From a virus (taxonomy: Duplodnaviria > Heunggongvirae > Uroviricota > Caudoviricetes), in the IMG/VR virus record IMGVR_UViG_2703718802_000001: DNA of 29,795 nt; one strand, written 5' to 3'. A program made the position numbers. Of the stretch, positions 21,001 through 24,000 are shown piece after piece. Positions within the stretch are counted from its first letter, which is position 1. Each line of letters opens with the position of its first letter.

Positions 21001-24000
21001 AATTAATGGCTGCTATCCATTAAAAGAGTATCCTCCCCATATACATAAAAAATTAATAACAATAGTGAACAAATGCATTCATGTAGATCCAAATGAAAGA
21101 TATCAATCCGTACTAGATGTACTAAACGATCTCTCAGCTATAAGTGATGGCGTTCTTGACTGGCGTCTACAGATGACGAAACCAACTAACGGCACATGCG
21201 AATGGCAAAAAAAGTCTGGGGACGCTATACTGTCTATAGTTTTTGACGCAGAAAATTCGTCTACTACTGGTTTTCGTTTATACGATGATGGGCGGAAAAG
21301 GCGTGCTACGAACTTAACAATATCCTCAGGATGTACCCCTACAAAACTGTATAGGTTATTAAAGGATAACTGATCATGAAAAAGCGCGAGGAAGTAAGCA
21401 AGCTGCCTCGCAGACGTGATGCAGCATTAGCGGTTCCCTACAAAAAAGATGAGTTCATAAGCCCTTCTGATGACAAAAAATTTTCAAAGGCGAAAAGTTT
21501 TACATCTACATCTCTAAAAGATAAATACTTTAAAATCTAGCCCGGCCTCAGCGCCGGGTTTTCTTTGCCTCACGTTCGCCCACCTAAAAAACATAACCAA
21601 TTGTATTTATTGATGTAACTCGCTAAACCATGCAGTTATGATCCCTGCCGCATAACCTTCATCAGCCACATTTTCAAAAATAAATTTCCTTATATATCAG
21701 AATCATACTTCGTAGAGTTAATAAATCACCAAAATTCGTACCAATAGTTCTTGATAATGTCGAACTATTGGTTCATTATTATCGTCGTCAGCAGGACGCA
21801 TTACTCACCAGGGCGGTGAATATACAACGATTCGAATATGAATCTACGGCGCTGACAAAGCGCAATAACCAAAGTGAACTTTGGGGTGTGGTGAAGGGTT
21901 CATGGACGGGAATATGTCGCACGTAAAGCGGCGAGGCCTGCGGGACTATTGCCGAATTGAAGTAGGCCGAAACAGGTCGAAATGGGTCTCCCACCTACCA
22001 CACCACCAAAGTTCATCAGGAGGTCTATATGACACGCAGAACTCAGTTCAAAGGCAATTCACGTTCTCGTCGTCGTGAGCGTTTAAAGGCAAAGGCATTA
22101 GCTAACGGCGTACTGGCCCGCGAAGAAGCAATAAGTTCAGAAGTATTACACCGCCCTACTCTAAGCAGAGCGCAGATTCAGGCTAAAGGTACTCACGAAA
22201 CGCCTGAGCGCATAGAAGACGCTAAGCCAATTAAGTTCATGGCACAGGACGTGATCTGGCAACAGAAAGAATACAGACGCAATCTGGAGCGAGCGGCCAT
22301 TGTGTACGCGAATGAGTTTGGACATAAGCAACCAGAAACTGGTGTATGTCTTCCAAACGTAGCCATTTACGCGGCAGGCTACCGGAAATCAAAACAACTG
22401 ACGGCGAGGTGACTTGTGTTGGTCGCCAGAAAATGAAATTAGGCAGCAAACCACTTATTTGAGGTGAGATATGACAAAATCATGGAGCGTACCTTTTCCT
22501 GAATCAGAAACTGAACATGATGGAATGCCTGTTTTCTGGAGATTCCAGGCGACAGTTGAAGAAGATGGGATAAAAATATTCGCACTTCAATATATAGCTT
22601 TTCATCAGACAGAGCATTATGCATGGTTGGTTCCTGCGCATTGGATTGTTAATTTTAAACCAGCACCAAATCAGTGGTTACAGGAATGGAAACAAAGGAG
22701 AAATAGATATGCAATTAAGAAAGTAGCAAAAAATGCAGAAAGATCTTTTGCATTCCCAACGAAGAAACTTGCCATTGAAAGTTTATTGCGCCGGAAGAAA
22801 TACCATTTAATGAGAATCAAACAAGATTTGGCTGTTGTATCAACTCTTGTTGATGGTATGAAGAATATTGATACATCAACACCAGATATTGAATATAACT
22901 TTGGACACAACCAAGAAACAGAAAATTGGGTATTTTATTAGTACGAATAAGCACTGTGTATTCATTCCAACGAGTGAATACACGGAGCAATGTCGCTCGT
23001 AACTAAACAGGAGCCGACTTGTTCTGATTATTGGAAATCTTCTTTGCCCTCCAGTGTGAGGGCAATTTTTTTGACGGAGGATATATGAAATTACGTGTCT
23101 GGCATATCCCGCAAGTACCTATGAAGCCGTTCATTGTAGAAGTGGCAAGTGTTGAAGAGGGTGTTCGTCTGATGGACGCACTGGCTGATTATGACGCCTT
23201 TCAGTATGACAACAACATCAAGCCTGATTACTGCAATGCTAACGGCCTTGAGATGTGGGATGAGAGCCTTACCGATGAAGATTTATCAGAGATGGGGCTT
23301 ACTGATCGCTGGGTGGATTGGTACAGCGAATGCCAATGTTACGACGACCCACGTAAATATCTCGAAAGCCTGAAAGAAGAAACATCAGCCGCCTAAGCGC
23401 GGCTTTACCGCATACCAATAACGCTTCACTCGAGGCGTTTTTCGTTATGTATAAATAAGGAGCACACCATGCAATATGCCATTGCAGGGTGGCCTGTTGC
23501 TGGCTGCCCTTCCGAATCTTTACTTGAACGAATTACCCGTAAATTACGTGACGGATGGAAACGCCTTATCGACATACTTAATCAGCCAGGAGTCCCGAAA
23601 AATGGATCAAACAATTATGGCTATCCAGACTAAATTCACTATCGCCACTTTTATTGGCGATGAAAAGATGTTTCGTGAGGCCGTCGACGCTTATAAAAAA
23701 TGGATATTAATACAGAAACTGAGATCAAGCAAAAGCATTCACTACCCCCCTTTCCTGTTTTCCTAATCAGCCTGGCATTTCGCGGGCGATATTTTCACAG
23801 CCATTTTCAGGAGTTCAGCCATGAACGCTTATTACATTCAGGATCGTCTTGAGGCTCAGAGCTGGGAGCGTCACTACCAGCAGATCGCCCGTGAAGAGAA
23901 AGAGGCAGAACTGGCAGACGACATGGAAAAAGGTCTTCCACAGCACCTGTTTGAATCACTCTGTATCGATCATTTGCAACGCTGCGGGGCCAGCAAAAAA

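Follow-up and report, generated by a model that had tools for sequence, protein, structure and literature searches.

A swappable 156-residue early gene and a constant hairpin–PreS–tL2a cassette as separate modules of the pL operon in a Shiga-toxin-type lambdoid phage

Introduction

In phage lambda, the gene sieB lies between N and ral in the early-left operon transcribed from pL, and ral stands immediately upstream of a spacer that leads to ea10. The present study concerns the corresponding stretch of a Shiga-toxin-type lambdoid phage, contained in IMG/VR record IMGVR_UViG_2703718802_000001 (29,795 nucleotides; this whole stretch of DNA is referred to as the window), in which an open reading frame (ORF) of 156 amino acids (aa) follows N and is itself followed by a hairpin, the small RNA (sRNA) PreS and the terminator tL2a. 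An earlier note on this DNA had drawn attention to the gene, placing it at the sieB/ral position, and to the hairpin that follows it, which was regarded as a possible site of RNase III cleavage or other processing.

The spacer downstream of ral in lambda encodes LPR1, since renamed PreS, an Hfq-bound RNA of ~88 nt with a processed form of ~68 nt (10.1101/2024.10.31.621285), the 3′ end of which is tL2a (Silverman et al., bioRxiv 10.1101/2024.10.31.621285). PreS of lambda is confined to the lytic cycle, activates dnaN translation and DnaN synthesis, represses alaS and supports phage DNA replication (10.1101/2024.10.31.621285). In the record of phage Sf6 (AF547987) the same DNA is annotated as "bsq4; boundary sequence", followed by "terminator, homology to phage lambda; tL2A"; it is likewise conserved there between flanking genes that differ among phages and is annotated as a joint of the mosaic, whereas here it is read as a functional sRNA, as shown in lambda, with a structured 5′ border. 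The PreS/tL2a/Sf6 bsq4 cassette was therefore already known, as was the 156-aa gene as a member of an uncharacterized family. What is new is the hairpin as the 5′ border of the PreS cassette, the ability of a second, unrelated hairpin to substitute for it, and the role of the cassette as the anchor of a hypervariable cargo slot.

Results and discussion

Two independent modules in the pL operon

The stretch is composed of two independent modules of the pL operon, a cargo gene that can be exchanged and a constant cassette formed by the hairpin, PreS and tL2a. Their parts are the following:

Whole window, plus strand (the pL direction): early region of a lambdoid Shiga-toxin-type phage (933W/H-19B-like)
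22471–22941, plus strand: 156-aa gene (933W L0079, phi24B vb_24B_11c, PHROG 1636), with an ATG start, encoding a basic protein with a predicted fold
22943–22953, plus strand: conserved linker CGAATAAGCAC in front of the hairpin, present behind several unrelated upstream genes
22954–22985, plus strand: 14-bp stem-loop with two G–U pairs and the loop CAAC, 5′ border of the PreS cassette
22985–23072, plus strand: PreS (LPR1) sRNA, 88 nt, as judged by sequence identity, with the seed at ~23020–23037
23044–23072, plus strand: intrinsic terminator tL2a, an 8-bp GC-rich stem and T7, the 3′ end and Hfq-binding module of PreS

Positions 22951–23071 are 99% identical to positions 33926–34046 of lambda, the ral–ea10 spacer, and spacers that are 90–100% identical occur in 327 phage records with differing flanking genes. 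On the strength of this identity the cassette in the window encodes PreS. It shares with lambda PreS the 88-nt sequence except for one base, which adjoins the U-run, together with an identical seed, the same terminator and a place in the pL operon upstream of cIII; it differs in its neighbours, which are ral upstream and ea10 downstream in lambda, and the 156-aa ORF and a gp17-like gene here. According to the primers of Table S5 of the PreS study, LPR1 begins with GAGCAATGTCGCTCG, which corresponds to position 22985 of the window, and the left homology arm used for the full deletion ends with ...GAGTGAATACACG, with which the hairpin also ends (10.1101/2024.10.31.621285). G22985, at the 3′ foot of the stem, is hence the first base of PreS as cloned and deleted by its discoverers, and the interval 22985–23072 measures exactly 88 nt, in agreement with the ends in Table S5 and the reported size. 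Positions 23010–23039 agree base for base with the wild-type sequence of primers P838/839, P888/889 and P970/971, and the seed is intact, including the bases altered in LPR1-M1, LPR1-M2 and the seed deletion; the shorter form, LPR1-S, would start near 23005. The terminator (stem 23044–23065, T7 23066–23072) folds as the terminal hairpin of the 88-nt RNA. Binding of Hfq, activation of dnaN and expression restricted to the lytic cycle would be expected of PreS in this phage as well, given its near-identity to the lambda RNA.

An Rfam scan of 21000–24000 returned only the cIII thermometer, PreS being absent from Rfam 15. A 32-aa ORF within PreS (22990–23088) was considered and rejected: its Shine–Dalgarno sequence is separated from the ATG by 2 nt, its C-terminus enters variable DNA past the terminator, and loci with the alternative hairpin described below lack the GGAG. 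In phage PA45 (L139, KP682389, 1–774) the homology to PreS begins only at the equivalent of 22998, immediately after two genes annotated as "mobile element protein", and an insertion-sequence element appears to have inserted into PreS and truncated it.

The 12-bp stem pointed out in the earlier note is present (22956–22967 paired with 22972–22983, with one G–U pair) and extends to 14 bp. The observation that no T tract follows the hairpin also held: its stem is AU-rich and is continued by GAGCAAUG, and it was not called by the terminator scan; a terminator with a T7 run, which like PreS goes unmentioned in the note, lies 58 nt downstream and is tL2a. Folding of the region gave z-scores between −4.8 and −5.4, stems of at least 14 bp were obtained in two of 300 dinucleotide shuffles, and 22954–22985 is the sole uninterrupted hairpin of at least 12 bp on the plus strand of the window. 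The hairpin is identical in lambda, Sf6 and 933W, and its 14-bp stem can lengthen by GC/GC pairs across an A–A internal loop, reaching positions +3/+4 of PreS. The linker in front of it, CGAATAAGCAC, may represent what is left of the 3′ end of an older gene (GAA TAA); in phage mEp043 a 52-aa gene has its final codon and its stop codon in these bases. On the minus strand, the only other uninterrupted hairpin of at least 12 bp in the window lies at 11980–12006 (GAAGGGTATGGTGGA/AAT/CACCATACCTTC-type), within a minus-strand ORF of 307 aa.

A constant cassette in a variable slot

A scan of IMG/VR and of reference phages identified at least 127 loci with the PreS seed, and the counts that follow refer to the loci listed. 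The ORF that ends just before the cassette belongs to at least 13 unrelated families, represented by Ral (at least 31 loci), the 156-aa ORF (at least 24), a 207-aa protein (at least 10), a 62-aa protein (at least 8), Sf6 gp34 (at least 8) and a 52-aa protein (at least 6), among others; the 156-aa ORF is thus the second commonest occupant of the slot, and Ral is the only one of these families with a known function. Downstream of the cassette there are at least eight alternatives, including Ea10 (at least 39), the cIII leader directly (at least 30), an Sf6 g33-like gene (at least 11) and gp17 (at least 7). Homology breakpoints flank the cassette, one immediately ahead of the hairpin and the other right past the U-run. 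The hairpin does not belong to the 156-aa gene as a 3′ feature but to a pan-lambdoid hairpin–PreS–tL2a cassette found behind at least 13 unrelated genes. A specific association of the hairpin with the 156-aa ORF was likewise rejected, as more distant homologues of the latter (85% and 83% identical; Pectobacterium, Rosenbergiella) are without the hairpin. Of 5426 complete Escherichia coli genomes, 2237 (41%) contain an unannotated PreS cassette.

In 6 of 126 loci listed, including that of mEp043, the 14-bp hairpin is replaced by an unrelated hairpin of 11 bp (type B, UAUAGCAGAUU-UACG-AGUCUGCUAUG) between the usual flanks, with CGAATAAGC to its left and GAGCAATG to its right; type B occurs behind one cargo gene only. 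Both hairpin types contain G–U pairs and are more stable in the pL sense than in the antisense direction (−17.7 versus −13.1 and −12.4 versus −9.4 kcal/mol). Two further IMG/VR loci with a left flank of the type found beside the 156-aa ORF (...TTGGAAATCATTCCTTGATAGTCTTGCCGCTCTATATGGGCGGCATTCTTTT) have kept the PreS seed and carry a different intrinsic terminator in place of tL2a, which suggests that the 3′ module is exchangeable in the same manner as the 5′ hairpin.

Role of the hairpin

Since type B replaces the usual hairpin, the G–U pairs favour the sense RNA and a promoter scan revealed no σ70-like promoter ahead of PreS, we infer that the hairpin acts at the RNA level, as a border element for processing, 3′ protection or insulation. 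In such a scheme the pL transcript would end at tL2a or be cut there, an endonuclease would cut at the 3′ foot of the stem and free PreS, the stem would be left as a 3′ cap shielding the mRNA of N and the 156-aa ORF from 3′ exonucleases, and the stem would keep the fold of the sRNA independent of the cargo gene upstream. Two general classes of RNA offer a precedent, namely 3′-untranslated-region-derived, endonuclease-processed Hfq sRNAs and intercistronic 3′ protective stem-loops. PreS resembles them in sharing the terminator of the upstream mRNA, with no detected promoter and a stable stem just 5′ of it, and processing and protection by this particular cassette would follow by analogy.

Two other roles were discarded. 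A promoter for PreS inside the hairpin is contradicted by the lack of an acceptable −10 or −35 element, both in the promoter scan and on reading of the sequence, and a palindrome bound by a protein at the DNA level is unlikely because type B differs in sequence and the G–U pairs favour the sense RNA.

The processing site proposed in the earlier note fits the anatomy, the 3′ foot of the hairpin being the +1 of PreS; its attribution to RNase III fits less well. Lambda pL transcripts are established substrates of RNase III, and a cut within the stem or the A–A internal loop could generate the 5′ end of PreS and destabilize or mature the upstream mRNA. The extension of the stem by GC/GC pairs over the internal loop to +3/+4 of PreS would lend itself to such a cut, and the deduced 5′ end of PreS coincides with the 3′-strand side of the internal loop, an arrangement shared with single-cut phage sites of the T7 R1.1 type. 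On the other hand, the helix of 14–16 bp falls short of the approximately two helical turns of classical substrates, its lower stem comprises only 2 bp and the type-B hairpin has just 11 bp. An RNase III site is possible but unlikely.

Still less probable is a hairpin devoid of RNA function, maintained as a joint for homologous recombination within a boundary sequence or hitch-hiking with PreS. The bsq4 label in Sf6, the breakpoints of homology on either side and the near-identity of the cassette, which would account for the lack of covariation, are what a recombination joint would be expected to show. However, it would leave unexplained the presence of an unrelated hairpin between conserved flanks in the type-B loci, the stabilization of both types by G–U pairs in the transcribed sense and the perfect 14-bp stem, which is rare by chance. 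An RNA border element is the reading that is retained below.

The 156-residue gene and its mobility

The 156-aa ORF is preceded by a Shine–Dalgarno sequence (GAGGTG) 5 nt upstream of the start codon, which is itself 58 nt from the stop codon of N. Compared with homologues from E. coli-like phages, Pectobacterium, Brenneria and Rosenbergiella, the proportion of synonymous differences (pS) is 0.4–0.9, i.e. saturated, and that of nonsynonymous differences (pN) is 0.09–0.30, with a dN/dS ratio of ~0.17 where computable. Because synonymous sites are saturated while pN stays low, the ORF is a real gene under strong purifying selection. The earlier note had presented it as the first gene after N, without recognizable motif and in an AT-rich patch, and each of these statements was substantiated: the G+C content of the ORF is 35.7% (26.8% at third codon positions), whereas gp17, gam, bet and exo have 47–52% and the window averages 46.7%; no significant match to Pfam, NCBIfam or PADLOC models was found for the protein or for 71 members of its family.

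The protein matches the PHROG 1636 profile with an E-value of 2.7e-112 (residues 1–156 of a 156-position profile), and PHROG 1636, 933W L0079 and phi24B vb_24B_11c are the same gene without differences. At the DNA level the gene is 99.7% identical to that of 933W, and the stretch singled out in the earlier note is 98–100% identical to PA28, H-19B, 933W, Min27 and phi24B. It is labelled hypothetical in every record, and searches of the literature by locus tag (L0079, vb_24B_11c and others) yielded nothing relevant. In the H-19B record AF034975 (L002, 3014–3685) the ORF is unannotated between N and gene 17, with DNA 98% identical. Close homologues of the protein are restricted to Enterobacterales, and the ORF was found in 598 of the 5426 complete E. 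coli genomes (~11%).

The gene module, from the leader through the stop codon, is joined to three different N alleles. PA28 and 683R2 carry other N genes, and homology to them begins at base 9–10 of the query, which corresponds to 22408–22409 of the window; the junction ...CCACTTATTTGAGGTGA.ATATG recurs after an unrelated N-like gene in locus L009.

Protein family and predicted fold

The structure prediction and remote-homology search proposed in the earlier note gave a confident model with no solved relative and no characterized homologue. A first AlphaFold run with 20 close homologues was poor (predicted local distance difference test, pLDDT, of 59.5) and was superseded by a model based on a 71-sequence alignment (pLDDT 96, predicted template-modelling score 0.84). 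The model has long strands at residues 19–30, 33–46 and 50–55, a fourth strand at 83–86, short helices and a 33-residue helix at 98–130. It matches no solved structure, only uncharacterized phage proteins; in BFVD there were 12 fold matches at E < 1e-3, all of them uncharacterized proteins of phages, with hosts given as Erwinia, Achromobacter, Rhizobium, Delftia, Tenacibaculum and Cellulophaga. Sequence searches of the PDB, with the single sequence and with a profile, gave nothing below an E-value of 0.1, and domain scans matched no helix–turn–helix (HTH) or other known nucleic-acid-binding domain.

An exhaustive profile search recovered 87 representative proteins at E ≤ 0.001, most of them of 130–155 aa, with no Pfam domain and no fusion; all recorded members of the family are named only "hypothetical". 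All that a second profile search for homologues added beyond one partial copy of the ORF were unnamed proteins devoid of Pfam domains. A 940-aa protein (P0066) with seven matched stretches in the exhaustive search is repetitive and was set aside as uninformative, and a relationship to Sf6 gp34, which occupies the same slot, was rejected, as hhalign showed no relation. The family is basic (median isoelectric point 9.0, above 8 in 66 of 71 members), with basic residues conserved at positions 24, 83, 84, 87 and 109 (~80–97% of members) and 108 (69%), and it has a near-invariant E/Q46–T47 pair.

The genes of the relatives are always found in early operons of temperate phages, immediately after an N-like gene, immediately before xis/int, beside RecT/YqaJ genes or two genes from phage DNA methylases; no partner gene is conserved and the place within the operon varies. 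The distant relatives near methylases (L136, 3374–5305, Marinobacterium; L137, 7692–8576, another prophage) have a phage cytosine DNA methylase at a distance of two genes and the integrase on their downstream side, a weak link between the family and anti-restriction neighbourhoods.

Operon context

The gene order is cI-like repressor, Stk kinase, tM, pL-like promoter, nutL, N, 156-aa ORF, gp17-like gene, cIII, kil, gam, bet and exo, the placement of nutL being transferred from the 933W annotation. The features surrounding the two modules are the following:

21751–21779, plus strand: pL-like promoter
22029–22412, plus strand: N antiterminator gene, first of the pL operon (Pfam N_peptide, 2.1e-15; PHROG 271), the same gene as N of 933W/H-19B
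22409–22470, plus strand: leader of the 156-aa gene with its ribosome-binding site, where the mobile gene module begins on the left
23085–23396, plus strand: P22 gene-17-like gene (Pfam PF17420 GP17, 7.3e-56; PHROG 1510), in the variable slot downstream of the cassette

The terminator scan predicted no terminator in the 22409–22470 leader and no intrinsic terminator anywhere between pL and tL2a. Because none lies between pL and the 156-aa gene, the latter is probably co-transcribed with N, ahead of any need for N-dependent antitermination. No promoter-like site for the gene was detected on the plus strand at 22412–22470.

Further downstream, a second intrinsic terminator at 23420–23445 occupies the position of lambda tL2b, just upstream of cIII, and is followed by the cIII thermoregulator (Rfam Lambda_thermo, 23456–23514, 88.5 bits, E = 1.4e-21). 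Upstream of pL, the gene of the Stk serine/threonine kinase (20328–21373) is frameshifted relative to 933W at ~20461–20468, with a run of seven A residues here and of eight there, which divides the 348-aa protein into ORFs of 84 and 278 aa; the gene may be a pseudogene or a slippage-prone switch, or the difference may stem from a sequencing error. The kinase portion matches the PADLOC defence models PD-T4-6 and mad6.

What the 156-residue protein may do

An early lytic effector is favoured because the gene lies in the repressed pL operon, has no promoter-like site of its own, is likely to be co-transcribed with N and occupies the slot of ral, and because its fold occurs in many unrelated phages. 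Our guess is that the protein, which has a conserved basic surface, binds nucleic acid or an acidic host factor during lytic growth and serves host takeover or counter-defence.

A narrower proposal is that the protein stands in functionally for Ral, or for another factor directed against restriction or defence, and is made at once upon infection so as to blunt host immunity; this is possible but less likely than not. The ral position assigned in the earlier note was corroborated, since the spacer directly behind the gene is the one found behind ral in lambda. Its place next to N, with no intrinsic terminator in between, its AT-rich and horizontally mobile character and the distant relatives close to methylase genes are all in keeping with such a function. 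The resemblance to Ral is nevertheless one of position: Ral has 66 aa rather than 156 and no sequence similarity, and it matches PHROG 1055, whereas the 156-aa ORF matches PHROG 1636, 13631 and related families. Moreover, the other genes of the slot are also without assigned function, and the evidence from context is weak.

The sieB-like exclusion function raised in the earlier note is very unlikely. A superinfection-exclusion factor expressed from the prophage would suit the position held by sieB in lambda, the neighbouring gp17-like gene, which Pfam labels superinfection exclusion, and a prophage that carries a defence-type Stk kinase; it is difficult to reconcile with a gene in the repressed pL operon that has no promoter-like site upstream on the plus strand. 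Additionally, the protein matches no SieB entry of Pfam or PHROG and appears by eye to be hydrophilic throughout, with no evident hydrophobic segment, and its fold relatives occur in many unrelated phages and not in prophages alone.

A DNA- or RNA-binding modulator of the lysis–lysogeny decision, of recombination or of replication, comparable to genes of the exo–xis region of lambda, would agree with the conserved basic surface and with relatives situated directly upstream of xis/int or beside RecT/YqaJ genes. This is improbable, as no HTH or other known nucleic-acid-binding domain was matched, the operon position varies and there is no conserved partner gene.

Taken together, we consider it rather probable that the stretch combines a 156-aa lytic effector as cargo with a PreS cassette in which the hairpin serves as an RNA border element. 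A number of points weigh against this interpretation. With regard to the protein, its charge, position and context are all that hints at an activity, and Rho-dependent termination between N and the 156-aa ORF may yet interrupt the transcript. With regard to the cassette, its 95–100% identity across the loci listed leaves classical covariation nearly absent, and the single-base variants of the stem are mixed: two disrupt a pair, one preserves a wobble, and a single pair is strengthened by two variants and broken by one. The type-B hairpin could have travelled with its cargo gene, and no PreS cassette lies downstream of the more distant homologues of the 156-aa protein. Finally, the +1 of PreS used here derives from cloning and deletion primers and from the size on northern blots rather than from a mapped 5′ end, and the PreS study makes no mention of the hairpin, of an RNase, of a promoter or of a processing enzyme (10.1101/2024.10.31.621285).

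Conclusions

A bolder version of the combined effector and border-element reading, which we put forward only tentatively and as rather unlikely in full, is that the 156-aa protein is the founding member of a fold family specific to phages, whose members act as immediate-early counter-defence or takeover effectors and are traded among lambdoid phages through the slot before PreS, and that the stem-loop is a required, sequence-independent border that would allow excision of PreS and capping of the mRNA whatever the cargo.

The major Shiga-toxin phages 933W, H-19B, phi24B and Min27 all have the 156-aa gene, which is probably expressed at the very start of lytic growth; with a confident model and no solved relative, its product is well suited to screens for anti-defence and host-takeover functions. 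The PreS cassette, as a fixed anchor, offers a handle for mining the cargo genes of a hypervariable slot, and the at least 13 small upstream genes next to this ~120-bp constant anchor provide a list of candidate early accessory or anti-defence genes (loci L015–L134, IMG/VR). The border hairpin, in turn, provides a testable model for how a 3′-derived phage sRNA may stay functional in a mosaic genome.

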